Source of the DNA: Thermoanaerobaculia bacterium
GTDB taxonomy: Bacteria > Acidobacteriota > Thermoanaerobaculia > UBA5066 > Gp7-AA6
Direction of reading: 5' to 3'
Length of the DNA: 42,142 nucleotides
NCBI GenBank assembly: GCA_035259605.1
Contig: DATFWF010000056.1
Coordinates: 1-42,142, forward strand
The first letter of the stretch is position 1. Every line of letters starts with the position of its first letter. Positions 11,331-35,144 of the stretch are shown here, one piece after another. A program made the translations under genes and the position numbers. The notes under the pieces were generated by a model. That model saw only the letters and a program-made list of their open reading frames with translations. It was not told the origin of the DNA and ran no database searches.

Positions 11331-11378
11331 CCGCTCCGACCCTTTTGAGAGATGATCGCTCCAACAGGCGGAGGGAGT

Positions 11379-12560
11379 ATGAAAGGCTTCGCGGTGCGGC
11401 GGCGTCTCGTCGGAGCGGGCGCTCTGGCTCTGGCTTCCCTTCTCGGCGCGTGGAGCGCGCTTCTGGGCGTCTGCGGACCTTTCACGGACGTCGCGGCGGA
11501 CGTGTTCTGTCCCTTCGTCCTGGAGGTCTTCTACATGGGGATCACGACGGGGACGACGCCCACGACCTATGACCCCTCGGGCAACACCACGCGCCTCCAG
11601 ATGGCGGCTTTTCTCTCGCGGACGGTGGACGGGGTATTGACCCGCGGCAGCCGGCGCGCGGCCATGCGCCGGTTCTGGAACCCCGGCAACGAGGCAAACC
11701 TGGGAGTGACGACCGTAGGCGGCAGCGCCGCCGTTCACGTCGATTCCGACGGGGCGGACATCTGGGCGGCGGGCTCGAATAACGTGTCGCGCGTGCGGGG
11801 GAGCGACGGCATGCTGCTGGAGACCTGGACCGCGGCGTTCGCCCACAATGTCCTGACGGCGTTCGGAAAGGTCTTCGTCACCGGCGCGTCGGATCCGGGC
11901 AGGCTCTACCGGATCGATCCCACCCAGGCGGCGGGATTCGCGACCTCGGTCGCGACGAACCTCGGGGACTCCCCGTTCGGAATCGCCTACGACGGCGCGC
12001 GAATCTGGACGGCGAACTTCGGGGACGGGTCCGTCGGGACCGGCTCGGTTTCGATCGCCACCGTCGCCGCCACCGTTCCCTGGACGGTCACGACCGTCAC
12101 GACGGGGTTCTCCCAGATGAGAGGCGCCCTGTGGGACGGAACGAGCATCTGGGTCACCGACCAGAACGCCGGCAAGCTGTTCCGGTTGAGCCCCGGCGGC
12201 GCGATCCTCCAGACCGTGACGGTCGGGACAGTCCCGGGCCGACCCGTATTCGACGGGACGAACATCTGGGTCCCCAACGACACCTCGAACTCGGTCTCCG
12301 TGGTCCGCGCTTCTACCGGCGTTCTGCTTCTGACTCTCACCGGGAACGGCCTGGACGGTCCCATTGTCGCCGCGTTCGACGGCCTGCGCGTCCTCGTCAC
12401 GAACAATACCGGCGCCAGCGTTTCGCTCTGGAAGGCCGCGGATCTCTCCGCCATCGGGTCCCTCTCCACTGGCGCCGGATCGACTCCGTTCGGAGCCTGC
12501 AGTGACGGGATCTCGTTCTGGATCGCGCTGAGCAACAAGGGGACCGTCGCTCGCTTTTAG
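11379..12560 (+). CDS. Secreted protein with one N-terminal SLH-like module and a beta-propeller (copy 2 of 2)
   Basis: GGAGGGAG precedes ATG 11379 (MKGFAVRRRL...). CGPFTDVAADVFCPFVLEVFYMGITTGTTPTTYDPSGNTTRLQMAAFLSR is near-identical to copy 1. Blades IAYDGARIWTAN, ALWDGTSIWVTD, PVFDGTNIWVPN, AAFDGLRVLVTN. Confidence 0.8.
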   Translation: MKGFAVRRRLVGAGALALASLLGAWSALLGVCGPFTDVAADVFCPFVLEVFYMGITTGTTPTTYDPSGNTTRLQMAAFLSRTVDGVLTRGSRRAAMRRFWNPGNEANLGVTTVGGSAAVHVDSDGADIWAAGSNNVSRVRGSDGMLLETWTAAFAHNVLTAFGKVFVTGASDPGRLYRIDPTQAAGFATSVATNLGDSPFGIAYDGARIWTANFGDGSVGTGSVSIATVAATVPWTVTTVTTGFSQMRGALWDGTSIWVTDQNAGKLFRLSPGGAILQTVTVGTVPGRPVFDGTNIWVPNDTSNSVSVVRASTGVLLLTLTGNGLDGPIVAAFDGLRVLVTNNTGASVSLWKAADLSAIGSLSTGAGSTPFGACSDGISFWIALSNKGTVARF

Positions 12561-15268: not shown

Positions 15269-18200
15269 TTGTTGTTCAGGGCGGGTCGGAAACGGGTCGG
15301 CGCCGCGGCGGTCGTCCTCGCGGTCTTCTGCGGAATCGCTTTGGGGTCGCGCTCGGCCAAGACGAGCGGGGACGGGAGTGTCCTGAGCTTCGCCGGAAAT
15401 GCGCAGCACACCGCCATTTTCGATCCGCCCGCGCAGGACCTGAACGCGATCCACTGGTCCAAGTCGATCGACCTGAACAACACCGCCCTGGCCCATTACG
15501 GGGCGCCGCTCATCACCGCCGCCAACTCGGTCCTCGCCCCGGTCAAGATCTCCGCCAGCGGCTTTCGCGTCGACGCGTTTCGGGGCTCCGACGGAAGCGC
15601 GAAGTACTCGCTGGCGAGCGACTACGTTCTGCCGCCGCACAACTGGATCCCAACTTACCAGCCGGTGGTCGCCCCGGCGGCCGGAGGGCTGCGGATCTAC
15701 TATCCCGGCGCGGGCGGGACGGTCCTCGCCACGGACGATCCCGACTCCGACACTCCCGCCGCCGCCGCGCGCAAGGTCTTCTACACGTCCCTCGCCAATT
15801 ACCAGGCCAGCGCCGCCGCCTTCAACGCCGCCATCTTCATCAACACCCCGATCACCGCCGACGCCGCGGGGAACATCTTCTTCGGGTTCCGCGTGGTTCA
15901 GGCCCCGCCGGCTCCGTTCAACACGATGCAGAGCGGCTACGCGCGGATCGATTCGAGCGGCAGCGGCACCTTCATCGCGGCCGGAGCGGCGGCGGCGGAC
16001 GCCATGATCGACAACGACTCGCACAACTGCGCACCGGCGCTCTCCAACGACGGGACCACGCTCTACGTCGTCGTGAAGGGGCTCGAGAACTACACCTACC
16101 TCCTGGGGCTGAACTCGACGACGCTCGCGACGAAGTTCAAGGTCTTCCTCAAGGACCCGCGAAACACCAACGGCGCGACCGTCCCGGACGACGCGACCGC
16201 GTCTCCCACGGTCGGCCCCGACGGCGACGTGTACATCGGAGTCCAGGGCAACCCCCTCAACGGGGGGCGCGGCTTCCTGCTCCACTTCAACGCCGACCTG
16301 ACCGTCGCGAAGACCCCGGGCGCGTTCGGCTGGGATTACACGGCAGCGCTCGTGCCGGCGGCGATGGTCCCGTCGTACACGGGAAGCTCGAGCTACCTGA
16401 TCTTCGCCAAGTACAACAACTACGCCAACCTCGGTGACGGCAACGACGGGATCAACAAGATCGCTCTACTGGACCCCAGCGCGACGCAGGTGGATTCGCA
16501 CCCCTCGGCCTCGGGCATCCTCGTCATGCGCGAGGTCCTGACCGTGGCCGGGCCAACCCCGGACTCGGAAAACCCCTCGGTTCCCGACGCGGTCCGGGAA
16601 TGGTGCATCAACACGGCGGCCGTCAACCCCGCGACCAACAGCGTCTTCACACCGAGCGAGGACGGACACCTCTACCGCTGGAACCTGGCGACGAACTCGT
16701 TCTCGCAGGTCGTCACATTGACTCCCGGGGTCTTCGAGCCCTACGTCCCGACCGTGATCGGCCCGGGCGGCGTCGTCTACTCGTTGAACGGCGGCACGCT
16801 CTTCGCGCTCAGCGGCCTCCCGGGGGTTTCCGTCACGCTGGACTCCTCGCTGCCCGACGTGCGCGCCGCGGTCGCCGGAGATGCGGTGACGTTCACCGCG
16901 ACCGTCGTCTCTTCGGGCCTGAGCCCGTCCACCCCCACCGGCACGGTCACCTTCGAAGACACGACGTACTTCGTCATCGATTTCGACGACCTCGGCACCA
17001 CGACGACCACGCTCGCCGCCAACGTTCCGCTCGACGAGTCGGGCCATGCGTCGGTCACGACCTTGGCGCTGGAGGCGGCGAACCATTTCGTCAAGGCGAC
17101 CTACAGCGGCGACGGCAGTTTTTCGGCCGGGAGCGCCACGCTCGTCCAGAAGATCCACGCGAAGGCGACGATGACCTCGCTCGCGTCGCTCCCGAATCCC
17201 TCGACGCCGGGCCAGAGCGTGACCTTCACCGCGACGGTCGCGGGGTCTCCCGCGGTCCCGGAGTTCCCGACCGGGATGGTGACCTTCCTCGAAGGCGCGG
17301 CCGTTCTCGCGCAGTCGCCGTTGAACGGGAGCGGGCAGGCGGCGTTCGGCACGTCCGCGCTCGCGGCCGGCGGGCACACCGTGACCGCCCGCTACGCCTC
17401 CGACACGCACTTCGCGGCGAGCAGCGGCTCGACCGGCCAGATCGTCCAGGGCGCGGTAACCCTGACGCCGACCTCCACTCCCACGGCGACTCCGACGCCG
17501 ACCTCGACTCCCACCGCCAGGGCGCAGGCGCAGGCGCTCTCCGTGGACGCTGCCGCCAACGGCGGCTTTTCCAACGGCAACGGAGTGCTCGAGCCGGGGG
17601 AGCGAGCCTTCGTCCGGCCGGCGTGGAAGAACGTCAGCGGCGCGCTCCTCGCGCTGGCCGGCGCCGCGTCCTCGTGGACGGGGCCCGGCGCGGCGTACGC
17701 GGTCTACGACACGGCCGCGGACTACGGCTCGATCGCCGGCGGCGCCACCGCCGACTGCGGCTCGGCGACGGGCAACTGCTACGAGGTGGGCGTTTCCAAC
17801 CCGGCCAGCCGGCCGGCCACGCACTGGGACGCGACCTTCACCGAGTCGCTGAACGACGGCGATCCGCCGAAATCCTGGCGCATGCACGTGGGCGGCAGCT
17901 TCACCGACGTGCCGGCCGGCCATGTCTTCTACTCCTTCATCGAGCGGATCCTGCACAACGGGATCACGGTCGGCTGCGGTCCGGGCGCCTTCTGTCCGGA
18001 CGATTCGGTTTTCCGCCTCCAGATGGCGGTCTTCCTCGCGAGGGCGCAGGCGGGCGGCGACGCGAGCGTCCCCGCGAGCGGAACGGCGCAGGGGAATCCC
18101 TACAACTGCGCCGGCGGCGGCGTCTCGCAGTTCACCGACGTGGATCCGACCGATCCCTTCTGCCGCCACGTCCATTACATCTTCGCGACCGGCGTGACGA

Positions 18201-18556
18201 CCGGGTGCGTCACGACACCGCCGCGCCAGTACTGCCCGGGCGATCTCGTCAACCGCGCCCAGATGGGGCTTTTCGTCGCGCGGGCCGTGGCCGGAAGCGA
18301 CGCAGCGGTTGCGACGACCTACGGACCCGATCCTTCGACCGGACGAAGCTACAGCTGCAATCCGGCGACTCCGAACCTGGCCTTCACGGACATCTCGACG
18401 GCCGACTTCTTCTGCCGCCACGTCCATTTCCTCTGGGCGAAGAACGTCATCTCGGGATTCCCGGACGGGACGTACGGTCCGTCGCTCCTCGTCTCGCGCG
18501 GCGCGATGGCGAAGTTCCTCGCCAACGGGTTCAACGTCACGCTCTACGGACCATAG
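15269..18556 (+). CDS. Large secreted protein: beta-propeller-like N-terminal region, two Ig-like repeats, a Thr/Pro linker, and a C-terminal cassette with three SLH-like modules
   Basis: TTG start followed by signal peptide MLFRAGRKRVGAAAVVLAVFCGIALG. Ig-like repeats GDAVTFTATV...PTGTVTFEDT and GQSVTFTATV...PTGMVTFLEG. Three modules of the form FTD[VI]...G[IV]..G...R.QMA.F.AR in the last ~220 aa. Confidence 0.85.
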   Translation: MLFRAGRKRVGAAAVVLAVFCGIALGSRSAKTSGDGSVLSFAGNAQHTAIFDPPAQDLNAIHWSKSIDLNNTALAHYGAPLITAANSVLAPVKISASGFRVDAFRGSDGSAKYSLASDYVLPPHNWIPTYQPVVAPAAGGLRIYYPGAGGTVLATDDPDSDTPAAAARKVFYTSLANYQASAAAFNAAIFINTPITADAAGNIFFGFRVVQAPPAPFNTMQSGYARIDSSGSGTFIAAGAAAADAMIDNDSHNCAPALSNDGTTLYVVVKGLENYTYLLGLNSTTLATKFKVFLKDPRNTNGATVPDDATASPTVGPDGDVYIGVQGNPLNGGRGFLLHFNADLTVAKTPGAFGWDYTAALVPAAMVPSYTGSSSYLIFAKYNNYANLGDGNDGINKIALLDPSATQVDSHPSASGILVMREVLTVAGPTPDSENPSVPDAVREWCINTAAVNPATNSVFTPSEDGHLYRWNLATNSFSQVVTLTPGVFEPYVPTVIGPGGVVYSLNGGTLFALSGLPGVSVTLDSSLPDVRAAVAGDAVTFTATVVSSGLSPSTPTGTVTFEDTTYFVIDFDDLGTTTTTLAANVPLDESGHASVTTLALEAANHFVKATYSGDGSFSAGSATLVQKIHAKATMTSLASLPNPSTPGQSVTFTATVAGSPAVPEFPTGMVTFLEGAAVLAQSPLNGSGQAAFGTSALAAGGHTVTARYASDTHFAASSGSTGQIVQGAVTLTPTSTPTATPTPTSTPTARAQAQALSVDAAANGGFSNGNGVLEPGERAFVRPAWKNVSGALLALAGAASSWTGPGAAYAVYDTAADYGSIAGGATADCGSATGNCYEVGVSNPASRPATHWDATFTESLNDGDPPKSWRMHVGGSFTDVPAGHVFYSFIERILHNGITVGCGPGAFCPDDSVFRLQMAVFLARAQAGGDASVPASGTAQGNPYNCAGGGVSQFTDVDPTDPFCRHVHYIFATGVTTGCVTTPPRQYCPGDLVNRAQMGLFVARAVAGSDAAVATTYGPDPSTGRSYSCNPATPNLAFTDISTADFFCRHVHFLWAKNVISGFPDGTYGPSLLVSRGAMAKFLANGFNVTLYGP
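17464..17514 (+). repeat. Imperfect 30-nt-period direct repeat encoding the Thr/Pro linker
   Basis: GACGCCGACCTCCACTCCCAC (17464-17484) and GACGCCGACCTCGACTCCCAC (17494-17514) differ at one base. Together they encode TPTSTPTATPTPTSTPTA. Confidence 0.8.
17570..18553 (+). repeat. Paralogous 984-nt (328-codon) C-terminal cassette, copy A
   Basis: SNGNGVLEPGE...ATHWDAT...SFTDVP... to the C-terminus is colinear, with no length difference, with 24834..25817. One 29-nt stretch differs by a single base (TCACGACACCGCC[G/T]CGCCAGTACTGCCCG). Confidence 0.85.
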
Positions 18557-22115: not shown

Positions 22116-25100
22116 ATGCGGCCCAAGGGATTGCTGGCGGTCGGTCTCCTCGTCTCGATTCTCTCGGTCGGAGCTTCGTCCTTCTCGCCGGGACCGGTTC
22201 CTCCGGCGCGCATCGTGGACGTGAGTAACGCGGAAGACGCGGATGCCGACCTTCCTCCCGGCATGGCGTGGATGATCGACAAGGAAACCTACCTGCGCCT
22301 GCGCAACGAACATATCAGCCGGCTCCGGGGCATCGAACCCGGTTACCTCCTCGATCCGGGTCTTCGAACCGAAGCGGTCCGGCAGATGGACCGACAGATG
22401 GCGCTTCAGAGCCTCCGCCGGGAGCTCGCGCCGAACACACCGGAAGCGGCCGCCTGGACTCCGCTCGGCCCCGCTCCGCTGTCCAACGGCCAGACCATGC
22501 AGTTCCCCACGACCGCGGCCGTCACCGGCCGCGCCACCTCCATTGCCGTGGACCCGGGCAACTCGAACAAGGTCTACCTCGGCACGGCCCAGGGCGGAGT
22601 GTGGCGCTCGACCGATGGCGGCGCGTCCTGGACGCCGATCTTCGACGCGGGCCAGTCGCTCTCCATTGGCGCGATCGCCCTGGCGCCCTCGGATCCGACG
22701 AAGCTCTACGTCGGGACGGGCGAGGGGAACAACTCCGCGGACTCTTTCTTCGGGGTTGGCGTTTACCGCATCGACAGCGTGGACACCTCGCCGGTCCTCG
22801 TCGGCCCGATCAACCCGCAGATCACGACGGGCACGACCATTCAGGTCACCACCAACTGCTTCACCGGGCGCAGCATCTCGAAGATCCTCGTTCACCCGAC
22901 CGACCCGGCGACGATCTTCGTCTCCACCGCCTTCGGCCTCGGCGGGATCGGGGCTAATTTCCTCTCCTTTTCCTCGCCGCCGCTCGGACTCCTCGGCCTC
23001 TACCGCTCGACCAACGCCACTGCGGCGGCGGGGTTGGTCACCTTCAGCAAGCTCGTCGTGACGACGCAGGGGAGCCTCGACATTCCGGGCACGGGCAACA
23101 CGGACATCACGGACATCGTGCTCGAGCCGGGAAACCCCAACAACCTCCTCGCCGCCGTGCGAGGCTCGACGGCTCCCGGCGGCGGCGTCTTCCTCTCCAC
23201 GACCGCCCTCGCCGCGACCCCAACGTTCACGCAGACGCTGACCCCCGGTCCCATCGGCCTGAACCAGAAGCTCGCGATCAACAAAGTCGGCGCGACGGTC
23301 ACGGTCTACGCCTCCTCCAGCGAAGGTTCCGCCTGCGGCGGAGGGCGGGTTCGGAAATCCGTCGACGGCGGCGCCACCTTTGGCACGCCGCTCCCGGCGG
23401 CCGACGGGTTCTGCGGCGGGCAGTGCTTCTACGACCTCCCGATCGCGGTGGATCCGAACAACGCATCGATCGTTTACGTCGGCGGCCAGGCCCGCTCGAA
23501 CGCGAACACCTGCCCCGACGTCCTCAAGCGCTCCTCGGATGGCGGGACGACCTTCAACCGCGACGACAACGGGCTCCACGCCGACGCCCACGCGTTCGCG
23601 ATGGATCCCCTGACCAACCCGACCACCGTCTGGTTCGCCAACGACGGCGGCGTCTGGAAGCGCCAGGACGCGGCCGCCGGGACGGCCTGGACCAACGCAA
23701 ACACCGCCTCGCTGAGCACGATCCAGTTCCAGAGCGTCGCGGTCCACCCGACCGACAAGGACTTCACCCTGGGAGGCACTCAGGACAATGGCACCGAGTA
23801 CCAGTCGGCGAGCACCGTCTGGTCCAGCGCCGCGAGCGGCGACGGCGGCTTCACGCTCGTGGATCAGAGCGCGACCGACACCGGCGCCAACATCAAGGCG
23901 ATCTACCACACGTACTTCAACGCCAAGAACTTCCTGATCGGCTTTCAGCGGGCGGAGAACGGCGCCTGCCTCGCCATCAAGGATTCCTGGCCGTCGCGCG
24001 GCTTCGGCCTGGGCAACAACCCGTCCACGACGACCTGCGACGGGACTGCCCTCGCGGCGCCCAACGGTCTGGCAGGGACGGACGATGTGCTCTTCTACGC
24101 GCCGATGGCCCTGGGGCCCGGCAGCCCGAACACCCTCTATTTCGGAACCGACAAGCTCTACCGCTCGTCCGACCGCGGCGACACGATGACGGCGGTCAGC
24201 CAGGTCATCTCGGCGGGCAACCCGGTCAGCGCGATCGCGATCCACCCGGCCGACGACAACATCCGGATCGTCGGCACGAGGAACGGCCTGGTCTTCGGCA
24301 CGATTACCGGGGCGAACCCGCTGGTTACTTTTGGCTTCACGGCGCCGACCAACGCCAGCGGCAGCGCGAACAAGTACGTCTCCCGCATCGCCATCGACCC
24401 GATCAACGCCAACACGGCGTACGTGGCGCTGTCGTACTACACCAATCCTTCCAACGCGGGGCAGGTCTGGAAGACTACGAACTTCAACACGGCCCGCGCC
24501 GGCGACGCGCCGGAAGGCGCTCCGAGCTGGAGCCCGGTCAGCAACGGGATCCCAAACGTTCCCGTCAACGCGCTGGCGATCGACCCGGTATGCGCTGACC
24601 ACCTCTGGGCCGGCACCGACATCGGCGTTTACGAGACAACTGACGGCGGGGCCAACTGGACGCCGTTTGGCACGGGTCTTCCCCGGGTCGCGGTGTTCGA
24701 TCTGGCGCTCCAGAACTCGAGCCGGACTCTCCGCGCCGCGACTCACGGCCGCGGGATGTGGGAGGCGAAGTTGAACGGCCCGTGCGCGAACCTCTCCGAC
24801 CAGGGGATGGTCGTGGACCCGACCGTGGATTCCTCCAACGGCAACGGGATCCTCGAGCCGGGAGAGAGAGTCCTCGTCAAGCCGTCCTACAAGAACGTCT
24901 CCGGGAGCACGGTGGGCAGCCTTTCCGGAACCGCTTCGAATTTCACCGGCCCTGCAGGCCCGATCTACACGATCAACGACGGGACCGCGAGCTACGGGTC
25001 GATCGGGGCCGGCGCCACGGTCCAATGCACGGACTGCTACGAGATGACCGTGTCCAATCCCGGCGTCCGTCCGGCGACGCACTGGGACGCGACTTACGGG

Positions 25101-25820
25101 GAAACGCTCAACAACGGCGCGCCGCTCGTCACTCGCAAGCTCCACGTCGGGTCGAGCTTCACGGACGTGCCGACCAACCACGTCTTCTACCAGTTCGTCG
25201 AGCGGATCTTCCACGCCGGGATCACGACCGGCTGCCTCACGGGGACGACCTACTGCCCGGATGACAACGTCTTCCGGCTCCAGATGGCCGTCTTCATCGC
25301 GCGCTCGCAGGCGGGCGGTGACGCCAACATCCCCGTCTCCGGCTCGGCGCTGGGCAACCCCTACAACTGCGTCTCGGGCGGACAGTCCCAGTTCACGGAC
25401 ATCGCTCCGGACAACCCGTTCTGCCGGCACGTTCACTACATCTTCGGTACCAACGTGACGACCGGCTGCATCACGACACCGCCTCGCCAGTACTGCCCGA
25501 GCGACAACGTGACTCGCGGACAGATGGCGCTCTTCATCGCGCGCGCGGTCGCCGGCGGGGACGCGAACGTTCCGGTGACGTACGGGCCCGACCCCGTGAC
25601 GGGACGGAGTTACTCCTGCAACCCGGGCACGCCGAATCTCCACTTCATCGACATCACGACGTCGGACATCTTCTGCCGCCACACGCATTTCCTCTGGGCC
25701 AAGGACGTGATCTCCGGCTTCCCGGACAACTCCTACCAACCGAACCTGAACGTCAGTCGCGGCGCGATGTCGAAGTTCCTGGCCAACGGGTTCAACATCA
25801 AGCTCTACCCCGGCTCATGA
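22116..25820 (+). CDS. Large secreted BNR/Asp-box repeat beta-propeller protein (VPS10/GH74/sialidase-like) with the same C-terminal triple SLH-like cassette
   Basis: AGGAGG lies 8 nt before ATG 22116, followed by a signal peptide. Asp-boxes WRSTDGGASWTP, RKSVDGGATF, KRSSDGGTTF, YETTDGGANWTP. The C-terminal 328 aa are paralogous to 17570..18553. Confidence 0.85.
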   Translation: MRPKGLLAVGLLVSILSVGASSFSPGPVPPARIVDVSNAEDADADLPPGMAWMIDKETYLRLRNEHISRLRGIEPGYLLDPGLRTEAVRQMDRQMALQSLRRELAPNTPEAAAWTPLGPAPLSNGQTMQFPTTAAVTGRATSIAVDPGNSNKVYLGTAQGGVWRSTDGGASWTPIFDAGQSLSIGAIALAPSDPTKLYVGTGEGNNSADSFFGVGVYRIDSVDTSPVLVGPINPQITTGTTIQVTTNCFTGRSISKILVHPTDPATIFVSTAFGLGGIGANFLSFSSPPLGLLGLYRSTNATAAAGLVTFSKLVVTTQGSLDIPGTGNTDITDIVLEPGNPNNLLAAVRGSTAPGGGVFLSTTALAATPTFTQTLTPGPIGLNQKLAINKVGATVTVYASSSEGSACGGGRVRKSVDGGATFGTPLPAADGFCGGQCFYDLPIAVDPNNASIVYVGGQARSNANTCPDVLKRSSDGGTTFNRDDNGLHADAHAFAMDPLTNPTTVWFANDGGVWKRQDAAAGTAWTNANTASLSTIQFQSVAVHPTDKDFTLGGTQDNGTEYQSASTVWSSAASGDGGFTLVDQSATDTGANIKAIYHTYFNAKNFLIGFQRAENGACLAIKDSWPSRGFGLGNNPSTTTCDGTALAAPNGLAGTDDVLFYAPMALGPGSPNTLYFGTDKLYRSSDRGDTMTAVSQVISAGNPVSAIAIHPADDNIRIVGTRNGLVFGTITGANPLVTFGFTAPTNASGSANKYVSRIAIDPINANTAYVALSYYTNPSNAGQVWKTTNFNTARAGDAPEGAPSWSPVSNGIPNVPVNALAIDPVCADHLWAGTDIGVYETTDGGANWTPFGTGLPRVAVFDLALQNSSRTLRAATHGRGMWEAKLNGPCANLSDQGMVVDPTVDSSNGNGILEPGERVLVKPSYKNVSGSTVGSLSGTASNFTGPAGPIYTINDGTASYGSIGAGATVQCTDCYEMTVSNPGVRPATHWDATYGETLNNGAPLVTRKLHVGSSFTDVPTNHVFYQFVERIFHAGITTGCLTGTTYCPDDNVFRLQMAVFIARSQAGGDANIPVSGSALGNPYNCVSGGQSQFTDIAPDNPFCRHVHYIFGTNVTTGCITTPPRQYCPSDNVTRGQMALFIARAVAGGDANVPVTYGPDPVTGRSYSCNPGTPNLHFIDITTSDIFCRHTHFLWAKDVISGFPDNSYQPNLNVSRGAMSKFLANGFNIKLYPGS
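24834..25817 (+). repeat. Paralogous 984-nt (328-codon) C-terminal cassette, copy B
   Basis: SNGNGILEPGE...ATHWDAT...SFTDVP...FLANGFNIKLYPGS, the same length and order of motifs as copy A. Confidence 0.85.
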
Positions 25821-31092: not shown

Positions 31093-32442
31093 ATGCCCGG
31101 ACGCTTCGCGGCCGCGGCCGCTCTGCTGGGAATCGGACAGTTCTTGGCGGGCGGCGCGCCGGCCCTGGCAGGCGGCGACCGGGGCGAGCTGGTCCGGGTC
31201 GTCGTCGTCTCCCGGCATGGCGTGCGCGCCCCGCTCCAGAAGCCGGAGGAGCTGGCGCTCTGGGCGGACAAGGAATGGCCGGATCTCGCGGCGGACTGGC
31301 AGGTGTCCAAGCCCGGCAACCTGACGCCGACGGGCAAGGCCCTCGCGAAGCGGATGGGGGAGTATTACCGTGCGCTCCTCGCCTCCGAGGACCTCCTTCC
31401 CTCGAAAGGCTGCCCGTCCGCCGGCGATCTGTTCGTGTGGGCGGACGTGGACCAGCGAACCCTCGAGACCGGCGAGGGAATCCTCGAGGGGCTCGCCCCT
31501 TCGTGCAACGGGATCTCGGTCCACTCGCTGAACGCCGACGTGGATCCGCTCTTCCACCCGGTCAAGGCGAAGGTCTGCGCCTTCGACCGCGAGAAGACCG
31601 AGGCGGCGATTCGCGGCCGGATCGGGGACAGATTCGCGGCGGTCGAGCAGGCCGCCGGCAGCGACCTTCAGGCCCTTCAGAACGTCCTCGGTTGCTGCGG
31701 CGCGGAGCTCTGCAAGCGGTTCGGCAAGCCCGCGCCCTGCCGCCTGCAGGACCTGGGGAGCGATCTCCTCTGGAAAGAGCCCGCCGATCCGAAGAAGCAG
31801 AACGAGGCCTTTTCGCTGGAAGGGACGCTGGGGATCGCTTCGACGGCGGCCGAGGTGTTCCTGCTCGAATACGCGAGCGCGTTCCAGGGAGAGAAGTGGG
31901 GCTTCGGGAGGATCGACGAGGCGGGAATGCTCCGGCTCGGCCGCCTGCACACTCTTCTCTTCGAGACCGTGGACCGGACTCCCTACGTCGCCCGCCGCGA
32001 AGGGTCGGAGCTCTTGAACCGGGTTGCCGCGATCCTCGAGGGAAGCTGGCCGCGCCTGCCGGAGATGCCGAAGAGCGCGAAGGCCGTCTTTCTGGTCGGC
32101 CACGACACCAACATCGGCAACCTCTCGGCGATGCTCGGCGTCTCCTGGCAGCAGCCCGATTACCAGGCCAACGACACGCCGCCCGCCGGGGCCCTCGTCT
32201 TCGAGCTGCGCCGCGGCTCGGACCGGCGCAACCGCGTCTTCGTCTCCTACCTCGCGCAGTCGCCGCGGCAGATGGCGCTGAAAGCGGCGCTCGATCTCGA
32301 CCACCCGCCGCGGCGGTCCTCGCTCTTCCTCCCGGCGTGCAGCTCCTCGAGCGCGGGCTATCCCTGTTCGCTCGACTCCTTCGAGCGCCTGGTGGACCGC
32401 GCGGTGGATTCCCAGTGCCTGCGCCGCGGCGGAAGGTGGTAA
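31093..32442 (+). CDS. appA: Periplasmic histidine acid phosphatase / phytase (AppA-like)
   Basis: GAAGGAG upstream, then a signal peptide. RHGVRAP (the RHGxRxP motif), GHDTN (the HD motif), and colinearity by eye with E. coli AppA, including GCP..G...WADVDQRT..TGE and PLFHPVKAKVC. Confidence 0.85.
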   Translation: MPGRFAAAAALLGIGQFLAGGAPALAGGDRGELVRVVVVSRHGVRAPLQKPEELALWADKEWPDLAADWQVSKPGNLTPTGKALAKRMGEYYRALLASEDLLPSKGCPSAGDLFVWADVDQRTLETGEGILEGLAPSCNGISVHSLNADVDPLFHPVKAKVCAFDREKTEAAIRGRIGDRFAAVEQAAGSDLQALQNVLGCCGAELCKRFGKPAPCRLQDLGSDLLWKEPADPKKQNEAFSLEGTLGIASTAAEVFLLEYASAFQGEKWGFGRIDEAGMLRLGRLHTLLFETVDRTPYVARREGSELLNRVAAILEGSWPRLPEMPKSAKAVFLVGHDTNIGNLSAMLGVSWQQPDYQANDTPPAGALVFELRRGSDRRNRVFVSYLAQSPRQMALKAALDLDHPPRRSSLFLPACSSSSAGYPCSLDSFERLVDRAVDSQCLRRGGRW

Positions 32443-32451
32443 GAGGGCGCC

Positions 32452-32928
32452 ATGAGCACGCTCGACGTCGGGGAGAAGGCGCCGGATTTCCAAACCGTGG
32501 ACCAGGACGGAAAGCCCGTCTCCCTGTCGGATTTCCGAGGAAGAAAGGTCGTCCTCTTCTTCTACCCGAAGGACGACACGCCCGGCTGAACGAAGGAGGC
32601 CTGCGCCTTCCGCGACGTGTTCGCGGACTTTCGAAAGAGAAACGTCGAGGTCCTCGGCGCTTCGACCGACAGCGAGAAGTCCCATCGAAAATTCGCCGAG
32701 AAGCTCAAACTGCCCTTCCGCCTCCTCGTGGACGAGGACAAGAAGATCGTCAAGGACTACGGCGTCCGGGACAAGAAGTCGCTCTACGGACGTCTCTTCC
32801 TGGGCACCCGGCGCGTGACGTACGTCATCGACGAGAAGGGAAAGATCGCGGCGGTGTGGCCGAAGGTCAAGACCGCCGACCATGCCCGCGAGGTCCTCGA
32901 CTTTCTTGACACTGGTGCCCACGCGTAG
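32452..32928 (+). CDS. bcp: Bcp/PrxQ-type peroxiredoxin with an in-frame TGA (32587-32589) at the peroxidatic Cys position. Candidate selenoprotein; the alternative is a pseudogene.
   Basis: One frame reads ...[13 protein letters not shown][TGA]TKEACAFRD...VLGASTDS...[15 protein letters not shown]...[13 protein letters not shown].... It is colinear with E. coli Bcp (FYPKAMTPGCTVQACGLRD). The track shows only the 103-aa tail, 32617..32928. Confidence 0.7.
32595..32626 (+). other. SECIS-like hairpins immediately 3' of the in-frame UGA
   Basis: GGAGGC-CUGC-GCCUUC (32595-32610) and CCGCGA-CGUGU-UCGCGG (32610-32626). The GU-containing loop lies about 30 nt after the UGA. Confidence 0.4.
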
Positions 32929-33043: not shown

Positions 33044-34429
33044 GTGGAAGCCAGCGCCTACGACCTCGTCGTCATCGGTTCGGGGCCGGCCGGCCAGAAG
33101 GGGGCGATCGCCGCGGCCAAGCTCGGCAAGCGCGTGGCCGTCGTCGATCGAAAGGAGCGGATCGGGGGAGTCTGCCTTCACACGGGAACCATCCCGTCGA
33201 AGACCCTGCGGGAGGCGATCCTGTACCTCTCGGGATACCGGCAGCGCGCCTTCTACGGACGCGATTACTCCCTGAAGGACGAGATTTCCGTCGGCGACCT
33301 GTCTCACCGGGTCCGCAAGGTGATGGGCCGGGAGATGGAGGTCGTTCGGGCGCAGTTGAAGCGCAACCACATCACGACGGTCCACGGCTCGGCGCGCTTC
33401 CTCGAACCCCATGCCGTGGAGGTCCAGAGCCACGAAGGAACCTCGCTGCTCCGGGCCGGGAATGTCCTGATCGCCTGCGGAACGCGCCCGGCCGAGAGCC
33501 CCACCGTCCCGCTCGATGGCCGGCGCATTCTCGACTCCGACCAGCTGCTCGAGTCCGAGCTGCTCCCGCGCGACCTGATCGTCGTCGGAGCGGGAGTGAT
33601 CGGCCTCGAGTACGCCTCGATGATGACCGCTCTCAACATCCGGGTGACGATCATCGAGCAGCGCCCCACGATCCTCGACTTCGTCGATCGCGAGATGGTC
33701 GAAGCGCTCTACTACTTCATGCGGCAGCGCGGGGCGACCTTCCGTCTCGGGGAGAAGGTCGTCTCGGTGGGACTGGACGAGCGGAGCCGGGTCGTCGCGA
33801 GCCTGGAGAGCGGGAAGCAGGTCCACGCCGACTCCCTGCTCTATACGGTGGGGCGGCAGGCCAACTCGGACCTCCTGAACCTCGAGGCAGCGGGCCTGGC
33901 GGCGGACTCCCGCGGCCGGCTCCCGGTCAACGAGCACTACCAGACCGCCGTGCCGCACATCTACGCCGCGGGCGACGTGATCGGATTCCCCTCTCTCGCT
34001 TCGACCTCGATGGAGCAGGGCCGCCTGGCGAGCTGCCACATGTTCGGCGCGCCGAGCACGAGCCGCCGGGAGTTCCTGCCCTACGGGATCTACACGATTC
34101 CGGAGATCTCGATGGTCGGCGCGACCGAGCAGGAGCTGACGGCCTCCAAGATCCCTTACGAGGTCGGACAGGCCAAGTTCGAGGAACTGGCCAAGGGCCA
34201 GATGCTCGGCGTCGACGTGGGGCTGCTGAAGATCCTCTTCGATCCGCGGTCCCTGAAGGTCCTGGGTGTTCACGCGATCGGAGAGAGCGCGGCGGAGATC
34301 ATTCACATCGGCCAGGCGGTGCTCTCCCTGGGCGCCACGATCGAGTACTTCCGAGACACGACGTTCAATTACCCGACCCTCGCCGAGGCCTACAAGGTCG
34401 CCGGCCTGGACGGCCTGAACCGCCTCTAG
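33044..34429 (+). CDS. sthA: Soluble pyridine nucleotide transhydrogenase-like flavoprotein (SthA/UdhA type)
   Basis: YDLVVIGSGPAGQKGAIAAAKLGKRVAVVDRKERIGGVCLHTGTIPSK matches the SthA pattern: a single Cys, with T in place of the second Cys of the CxxxxC. A second Rossmann motif IVVGAGVIGLEYA, then the dimerisation domain. The start is uncertain: GTG 33044 is preferred over ATG 32882, which would overlap bcp by 47 nt and add a low-complexity tail. Confidence 0.8.
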   Translation: MEASAYDLVVIGSGPAGQKGAIAAAKLGKRVAVVDRKERIGGVCLHTGTIPSKTLREAILYLSGYRQRAFYGRDYSLKDEISVGDLSHRVRKVMGREMEVVRAQLKRNHITTVHGSARFLEPHAVEVQSHEGTSLLRAGNVLIACGTRPAESPTVPLDGRRILDSDQLLESELLPRDLIVVGAGVIGLEYASMMTALNIRVTIIEQRPTILDFVDREMVEALYYFMRQRGATFRLGEKVVSVGLDERSRVVASLESGKQVHADSLLYTVGRQANSDLLNLEAAGLAADSRGRLPVNEHYQTAVPHIYAAGDVIGFPSLASTSMEQGRLASCHMFGAPSTSRREFLPYGIYTIPEISMVGATEQELTASKIPYEVGQAKFEELAKGQMLGVDVGLLKILFDPRSLKVLGVHAIGESAAEIIHIGQAVLSLGATIEYFRDTTFNYPTLAEAYKVAGLDGLNRL

Positions 34430-34484
34430 ACCGCGGCTCCCGGAGGGGTATGATCCGCTTTCCGAAAACTACTAGGAGGGCGGA

Positions 34485-35144
34485 ATGCTGAAGATTGGAG
34501 ATACGGCTCCGGATTTCGAGGCGGACACCACCGAAGGGCACATCAAGTTTCACGAGTGGCTCGGGAATTCGTGGGGCGTGCTGTTCTCGCACCCCAAGGA
34601 CTTCACGCCGATCTGCACGACCGAGCTCGGCTACATGGCGAAGATCAAACCCGAGTTCGATAAGCGCGGCGTCAAGATCGTCGGGCTGTCCGTCGATCCC
34701 GTGACCTCTCACTCGAAGTGGGCCAACGACATCCAGGAGACGCAGGGCCACGCGCCCAACTATCCGATGATCGGGGACCCGCAGCTGAAAGTCGCGAAGG
34801 CGTGGGGAATGCTCCCGGCGGACCTGGAGGGGAGCTGCGAAGGCCGCACTCCCGCGGACAACCAGACCGTCCGCAACGTCTTCGTCATCGGGCCGGACAA
34901 GAAGATCAAGCTCATCCTGGTTTACCCGATGACGACCGGGCGCAACTTCGACGAGGTGCTGCGGGTGATCGATTCGCTCCAGCTCACGGCGAAGCACAAG
35001 GTGGCGACGCCGGTCAACTGGAAGCATGGCGAGGACGTCATCATCGCGGGCTCGGTCAACGACGAGGACGCCAAGAAGCTGTGGCCCTCGGGCTGGAAGT
35101 CGCCCAAGCCCTACATCCGGATCGTGCCCCAGCCTCGCGGCTGA
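34485..35144 (+). CDS. 1-Cys (Prx6-type) peroxiredoxin
   Basis: GDTAPDFEADTTEGHIKFHEWLGNSWGVLFSHPKDFTPICTTELG is the Prx6 signature with Cys in the PxxxTPxCTTE motif. Also VIDSLQLT, PVNWK and IVPQP. Confidence 0.9.
   Translation: MLKIGDTAPDFEADTTEGHIKFHEWLGNSWGVLFSHPKDFTPICTTELGYMAKIKPEFDKRGVKIVGLSVDPVTSHSKWANDIQETQGHAPNYPMIGDPQLKVAKAWGMLPADLEGSCEGRTPADNQTVRNVFVIGPDKKIKLILVYPMTTGRNFDEVLRVIDSLQLTAKHKVATPVNWKHGEDVIIAGSVNDEDAKKLWPSGWKSPKPYIRIVPQPRG

Follow-up and report, generated by a model that had tools for sequence, protein, structure and literature searches.

An in-frame UGA at the peroxidatic position of a Bcp/PrxQ-type peroxiredoxin gene from Thermoanaerobaculia: a probable selenoprotein and its Cys-type sisters

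Peroxiredoxins (Prx) are a recognised family of bacterial selenoproteins, in which five Cys-to-Sec events have been counted (PMC1794560), and they are also listed, with repeated Cys-to-Sec conversions, among the bacterial selenoprotein families of PMC13188914. The prototype Sec-Prx, as cited in PMC13188914, is PrxU of Eubacterium acidaminophilum (Sohling et al. 2001). A preliminary description of the locus studied here also pointed to Sec-containing peroxiredoxin-like proteins in bacterial selenoproteome surveys. We analysed a 42,142-nucleotide stretch of DNA from a Thermoanaerobaculia bacterium (hereafter the window), and found that it very probably carries a genuine Sec-Bcp gene: the sequence argues for a single thiol peroxidase of the Bcp/PrxQ type, 158 residues long, whose UGA codon 46 would be decoded as Sec. 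Like the Prx family (PxxxTxxU), the predicted protein has the AhpC/TSA fold and would carry Sec at a peroxidatic T-x-x-U (TPGU), and like other Prx selenoproteins its gene appears to derive from a thiol peroxidase by Cys-to-Sec conversion. Unlike PrxU, which belongs to another Prx subfamily (the window protein scored 66 bits on the NCBIfam model peroxi_PrxU, whose cutoff is 270), it is a Bcp/PrxQ equivalog whose resolving Cys lies five residues past the peroxidatic position (C_P+5), and it comes from a Thermoanaerobaculia-like lineage. The protein thus joins an already known selenoprotein family; what makes it notable is its apparent youth, the minimal route of three mutations proposed for its hairpin, and the uncommon position of that hairpin.

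We recovered the frame of the preliminary description in both the sequence and its translation: ATG (32452-32454), 45 sense codons, TGA as codon 46 (32587-32589), 112 more sense codons and TAG (32926-32928), with the TGA as the sole interruption of a 158-codon Bcp/PrxQ frame. The upstream phosphatase gene ends with a TAA at 32440-32442, 9 nt before the ATG, a spacing that appears operon-like. The claim that both halves build one Bcp fold was borne out by the profile searches: when codon 46 was translated as Cys, the product gave a full-length match to Pfam AhpC-TSA (PF00578; E=4.9e-45, residues 6-134) and reached 162.6 bits on the NCBIfam Bcp equivalog NF006960, above the cutoff of 140. The TGA does lie at the position of the peroxidatic Cys, as had been proposed, since it aligned with TGC in six sister orthologs and fell in the column of the peroxidatic Cys in alignments of PDB Bcp structures. 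The active-site motif PxxxTxxC(U) was present as P39-K-D-D-T43-P-G-U46, with counterparts in 5enu (FYPKDNTPGC) and 3drn (FYPKDDTPG) and matches in all homologues, while the resolving Cys described five residues downstream was also retained (Cys51). The catalytic Arg corresponds to R121, which aligned with the R of GIERSTFLID in 5enu and was kept in the homologues. The coordinates of all these features are given in Table 1.

Table 1. Features of the candidate Sec-Bcp locus, in positions of the window.
Feature	Position	Strand	Remarks
Sec-Bcp/PrxQ CDS (probable)	32452..32928	+	158 sense codons including UGA-46, plus TAG
Shine-Dalgarno-like GAGGG	32443..32447	+	4 nt 5' of the ATG, seen in the sequence
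UGA codon 46, peroxidatic position	32587..32589	+	Aligned with TGC of six sister orthologs and with the structural C_P
Resolving Cys51 codon TGC, C_P+5	32602..32604	+	Kept in all homologues aligned
H1, GGAGGC-CUGC-GCCUUC	32595..32610	+	Putative auxiliary or spacer helix
H2, UCCGCGA-CGUGU-UCGCGGA	32609..32627 (loop 32616-32620)	+	Proposed SelB-binding SECIS

The two strands of the window together carry 756 TGA triplets. Only 2 of these were flanked by open coding-like sequence, and homology across the triplet was found at 32587-32589. The other one (40250, +), with 30 open coding-like codons on each side, sits between a DinB-family and an AcrB-family gene, both encoded on the other strand; we took it for noise. 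TGA was an ordinary stop in 7 out of the 18 probable genes of the window; the code is therefore standard, and a reassigned genetic code was ruled out. The tblastn searches with E. coli SelA, SelB and SelD detected no selA, selB or selD in the 42-kb window or in any of the 130 fetched loci, and ARAGORN found no tRNA in the window. We infer the Sec-decoding trait of the organism from the behaviour of the gene itself. A literature search for Thermoanaerobaculia together with selenocysteine returned no paper.

The three best matches of a search with the tail alone were tail ORFs of 101-103 aa (93%, 87% and 85% identity). The first belonged to a contig with the whole gene and the TGA at codon 46 (L124), and the second to a contig that begins inside the gene and has the TGA (L125); five synonymous changes surround that retained codon within about 25 nt. 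The third, from Logan contig SRR26290409, is known from gene calls alone, as a 45-aa and a 101-aa product. Scanning metagenomes for the clade's motif in its TGA form yielded another two loci: L123, which has the TGA, is 99.4% identical in nucleotides to the window (9 mismatches) and comes from a different JGI dataset, and L122, a distant Sec-Bcp on the 441-kb contig Ga0247727_10000007. The three TGA contigs of which the DNA was read came from the datasets Ga0066904, Ga0126384 and Ga0451576. The preliminary description had anticipated that automated callers would give only the 103-aa tail or a pseudogene, and the public calls bear this out: the relatives were called as a 45-aa fragment plus a 101-103-aa tail, and their public tail calls start at a GTG within the loop of hairpin H2.

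The closest full-length homologues of the window protein were Cys forms (81-85% amino acid identity) from Thermoanaerobaculia MAGs and soil metagenomes. In a neighbour-joining tree built on the tail, the window grouped with L124, L125 and the Logan protein in one clade inside the Cys orthologs P0001-P0006, and the nearest other Sec-Bcp among the matches listed was only about 60% identical. This nesting, as far as the sequences go, indicates one recent Cys-to-Sec conversion in the lineage of the window. Another close Cys-type relative, P0124 (an ENA contig, 143 aa), has an N-terminal stretch of 40 residues that is the Bcp active-site region read out of frame, which makes it either a frameshifted copy or the product of an assembly error.

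The divergence of the window from L123 and L124 was mosaic. We counted 0 mismatches from 32126 to 32627 (and, for L123, only 3 in 31325-32627), followed by 6 mismatches in 82 nt, common to L123 and L124, from the first base after H2 (32628). L124 stayed about 8% diverged past H2 and was unalignable after the stop codon. The 32627/32628 edge could be a recombination breakpoint or a strain-chimeric assembly; the near-identity between strains stops precisely where the hairpin ends on its 3' side, which would fit a TGA-plus-SECIS module spread by homologous recombination. Up to 32627 the three sequences are all but the same, and the TGA shared with L123 and L124 therefore does not count as independent evidence. 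Finally, two codons set the window apart from its close relatives: codon 106 (32767-32769) is Arg CGG, against Trp TGG in all of them, Sec and Cys forms alike, and codon 139 (32866-32868) is Thr, against Pro. W106R need not be deleterious, as solved Bcp structures carry other residues at the Trp position.

Downstream of the TGA, dN/dS was 0.09 between the window and L124 (dS 0.28, binomial p=3.5e-7 against neutrality), 0.125 between the window and L125 (dS 0.50, p=6e-9) and 0.135 between L124 and L125 (dS 0.44, p=1e-7), compared with a range of 0.14-0.31 for the Cys orthologs. Upstream of it, the 14 codons shared by the window and L125 differed by 4 synonymous and 0 nonsynonymous changes. We also looked for decay of the 3' half in close orthologs, and the four or five diverged copies had no extra stops or frameshifts. 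These values show strong purifying selection on both halves of the gene in the TGA clade. A separately translated tail would be devoid of the active site; selection on both halves therefore implies that the UGA is read through, and the low dN/dS within the clade agrees with the earlier view that the gene is not a decayed pseudogene.

The two hairpins reported in the preliminary description (GGAGGC-CUGC-GCCUUC at 32595-32610 and CCGCGA-CGUGU-UCGCGG at 32610-32626) exist in the RNA exactly as claimed, and the 6-bp core of the second (H2) extends to 7 bp at 32609-32627. Base 32610 is common to both, so that H1 and H2 cannot form fully at the same time. We compared them with the bSECIS model of PMC13188914, which comprises a loop of 3-9 nt, a stem of 4-16 bp, a G in the first two loop positions, a spacing of 16-37 nt and an MFE of at most -7.5 kcal/mol. 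The SECIS reading of the hairpins held for H2 only, as it agrees with every constraint (-10.3 kcal/mol, 7 bp, 5-nt loop CGUGU with a G at position 2 followed by U, spacing of 26 nt from the UGA). H1 was rejected as a SelB-binding element: its spacing is 11 nt, its first two loop positions have no G, and it is less conserved than H2, with one pair lost in L125.

The SECIS-like geometry of H2 is thus real, though of little weight by itself. In this 68% G+C window, the same model was passed by 10% of random TGAs when bulges were left out and by 38% when bulges and internal loops were allowed, while 58% of the bona fide Sec-Bcp loci passed it (among the matches listed). With such a background and such a pass rate at true loci, the model is non-discriminating here, and we rejected it as stand-alone evidence. 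The fold z-score of the 64 nt after the UGA against shuffled sequences was -0.6. The covariance models of Rfam lent the SECIS reading no help: no SECIS or other credible family was found in the window at the gathering threshold, nor in 32400-32800 under permissive settings. RNAalifold recovered both H1 and H2, and all 11 predicted pairs were invariant among four TGA sequences; since stem pairs that never vary leave no compensatory covariation to see, this result speaks neither for nor against the structure.

The comparison between TGA and Cys forms was more informative. In the ortholog alignment, Cys and the putative Sec share one column, and H2 is perfect in the TGA forms and broken in the sister Cys forms. 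In particular, three nucleotide states separate 5 out of 5 TGA forms (the distant L122 included) from 6 out of 6 sister Cys forms. The Ala52 codon is GCC in the TGA forms and GCG or GCA in the Cys forms; codon 56 is GUG or GGG in the former and GAG, GAC or GAU in the latter; and the codon at Ala58 is GCG against GCC or UCC. Each state bears on the hairpins: GCC at Ala52 completes H1, GCG at Ala58 abolishes a C-C mismatch of H2, and the state of codon 56 gives G-U (or G-G) at loop positions 2-3 of H2. The energy of H2 was -10.3 kcal/mol in every TGA form, compared with 0 to -4.1 kcal/mol in the six Cys orthologs. That of H1 was -8.1 kcal/mol in the window and -5.5 to -6.2 kcal/mol in L125 and L122 (-5.5 to -8.1 over the TGA forms), compared with -2.3 to -4.1 kcal/mol in the Cys forms. 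The stems of H2 were identical in all TGA forms, including L122, and its six codons showed 0 synonymous changes within the TGA clade despite a dS of up to 0.5, while H1 showed two. This stability of H2 in TGA forms only, together with its invariant codons, led us to take it as the SelB-binding element. We infer that H2 would be the SelB-binding SECIS and H1 an optional spacer helix; as judged by comparing sequences, the restriction of a stable H2 to the TGA forms is stronger support than the fit to the bSECIS model.

By analogy with the established bacterial Sec pathway, SelB with Sec-tRNASec would be recruited by the hairpin of the F-R-D-V-F-A-D codons (32609-32627) to the ribosome paused at the UGA. 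The selenolate at the peroxidatic position would then attack the peroxide, Cys51 would resolve the selenenic acid into an Se-S bond, and thioredoxin would reduce this bond, as in atypical 2-Cys Bcp enzymes. The sequences show the frame, its membership of the family, the conserved TGA, the purifying selection and the association of the TGA with the hairpin; SelB binding, the identity of the residue as Sec rather than another one, and the catalytic chemistry are expected by analogy with that pathway. The origin of the gene would be recent and inside the Cys-type Bcp lineage of Thermoanaerobaculia-like Acidobacteriota, where a TGC to TGA change plus three point changes would have turned a coding near-palindrome into a stable hairpin. 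We offer only tentatively the full version of this scenario, a very young Cys-to-Sec conversion whose SECIS arose from three changes (two synonymous at Ala codons, plus E56V) on the F-R-D-x-F-A-D near-palindrome, with convergence in L122.

The simplest competing reading is a fixed nonsense mutation, which would make the locus a bcp pseudogene, dispensable given the nearby 1-Cys peroxiredoxin, and its hairpins a coincidence of FRDxFAD coding. It draws on the one-base difference between this TGA and the TGC found in close orthologs, on the 1-Cys peroxiredoxin 1.5 kb downstream, on W106R and P139T in the window copy, and on the facts that hairpins this good are common in such a G+C-rich window and that the near-palindrome pre-exists in the Cys forms. 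We nevertheless consider a pseudogene very unlikely. The dN/dS of the TGA clade (0.09-0.14) is no higher than that of the Cys orthologs (0.14-0.31) and departs from neutrality (p<=3.5e-7), the four or five diverged copies are free of further stops and frameshifts, the TGA was retained though flanking synonymous sites changed, and the three nucleotide states accompany it in two separate lineages. The same one-base difference, together with the probable origin of the window from a metagenome assembly, could suggest a sequencing or assembly error hiding a true TGC or TGT, to which we give a negligible probability: the same TGA occurs in three contigs of the other datasets named above, the Logan gene calls show the same 45-aa plus tail split, and with four or five copies of separate origin a sequencing error is ruled out.

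Two further readings accept the UGA and differ in what the cell makes of it. Gene callers give exactly two ORFs, and both parts are conserved, which would be expected of two polypeptides, an N-terminal fragment of 45 aa and a tail of 103 aa with GTG 32617 as its start codon, acting as a split Bcp or independently. Such a split enzyme would have no residue at the peroxidatic position and would lack residues 47-55, Cys51 included, although these residues are conserved as protein in all copies; moreover, no ribosome-binding site is evident 5' of GTG 32617, which is itself part of a stable hairpin's loop, and we regard this reading as extremely improbable. Recoding of the UGA to a residue other than Sec, by a selC* tRNACys via SelB, a suppressor allo-tRNA or near-cognate read-through, is unlikely too, though the least so of the alternatives. 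Both selC* tRNACys and acidobacterial allo-tRNAs, which are possible nonsense suppressors, have been described (PMC5389517), but selC* was reported there in Firmicutes, Thermodesulfobacteria, Nitrospirae and Proteobacteria and not in Acidobacteria. An enzyme with a non-redox residue at C_P would be inactive, at odds with the purifying selection, a change from TGC to a UGA read as Cys would bring the lineage no gain, and genes of the window use TGA as a normal stop. Non-Sec decoding is therefore less parsimonious than decoding as Sec, which we retain as the preferred reading of UGA-46.

Regarding the neighbourhood, the region directly downstream (33049-35144) holds a pyridine-nucleotide disulfide oxidoreductase (Pyr_redox_2 plus dimerisation domain, no NCBIfam name) and a 1-Cys-type peroxiredoxin (AhpC-TSA plus 1-cysPrx_C), which may form an antioxidant cluster with the Sec-Bcp. 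At the Cys ortholog locus L001, a reprolysin-like protease takes the place of these downstream redox genes. Elsewhere in the window, we found S-layer homology (SLH) domains in three large secreted-looking proteins (11352-12560, 15269-18556 and 22116-25820), one of them with Big_3_5 repeats and one with Sortilin/Vps10-like repeats. To our knowledge, SLH domains are unusual for Acidobacteriota-like DNA.

Automatic annotation splits or truncates the window gene and, presumably, at least 120 species-level relatives. An antioxidant selenoenzyme would thus stay hidden, and selenium use would be under-counted in soil Acidobacteriota, Gemmatimonadota, Binatia and others. The TGA clade and its 81-85% identical Cys sisters make a clean natural pair, which bears on the minimal mutations that make a functional bacterial SECIS and on what Sec gives a Bcp peroxidase over Cys.

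Compared with the E. coli fdhF-type SECIS and the bSECISearch consensus, as far as PMC13188914 presents them, H2 is alike in being a coding-region stem-loop 3' of the UGA with a small GU loop. Unlike the fdhF-type element, it has no sequence similarity to it and no bulged U, and its loop departs from the preferred pattern N1-G-[G/U]-N-N2 with N1-N2 pairing that PMC13188914 gives. The Cys-type Bcp proteins (P0001-P0006 and L001) have the same length as the window protein and an identical active-site context from DDTPG. One of these loci (L001, GCA_036006745.1) also has the same upstream synteny (BBP7 porin, histidine acid phosphatase, bcp), with TGC. They differ from the window by that TGC for TGA, by E or D for V56, and by other synonymous codons at Ala52 and Ala58; with these codons at 52, 56 and 58, the hairpins are weak or absent there.

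Finally, we scanned a genome collection for the Bcp active-site motif with TGA at the C_P codon and obtained at least 120 species-representative loci (L002-L121). Among the matches listed, the Bcp frame was intact before and after the TGA in about 115 out of 122 genes, and the carriers included Desulfobacterota, Binatia, Gemmatimonadota, Planctomycetota, Chloroflexota and Verrucomicrobiota, as well as several Acidobacteriota classes, e.g. Blastocatellia/Pyrinomonadaceae. By sequence, TGA at the Bcp C_P position is common across bacterial phyla. Two of the loci (L017 and L120) have two Sec-Bcp paralogs each, within 8 kb. One comes from a cultured isolate (L032, Alicyclobacillus sp. SP_1), most other listed loci being from MAGs. 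In three loci (L006, L015 and L092) a tail of 19-38 codons after the TGA is followed by another stop, and these may be decayed copies or frameshift errors.

The listed Sec-Bcp loci and the window share the motif TPGUT(K/x)(E/Q)AC, the position of the UGA and a hairpin built from the codons after the active site, while none of the listed proteins exceeds about 60% identity to that of the window. Their hairpins follow two common designs. The first one has a loop GUU, a spacing of 17 nt and a stem from the A-C-G-F-R-D-A codons (at least 34 loci), and the second one has a loop CGUGAU from the R-D codons, a spacing of 21 nt and a 3' arm formed by the variable residues that come next (at least 26 loci). 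The window does not fit these designs: it has Ala (GCC) where the GUU-loop type needs GGG, and the stretch that follows CGCGAC lacks complementarity to UGCGCCUUC. The hairpin of the window clade, with its loop CGUGU and its spacing of 26 nt, lies instead 5-9 nt further 3' than those of the common Sec-Bcp designs, an arrangement that, among the matches listed, is common only to the window clade and L122.
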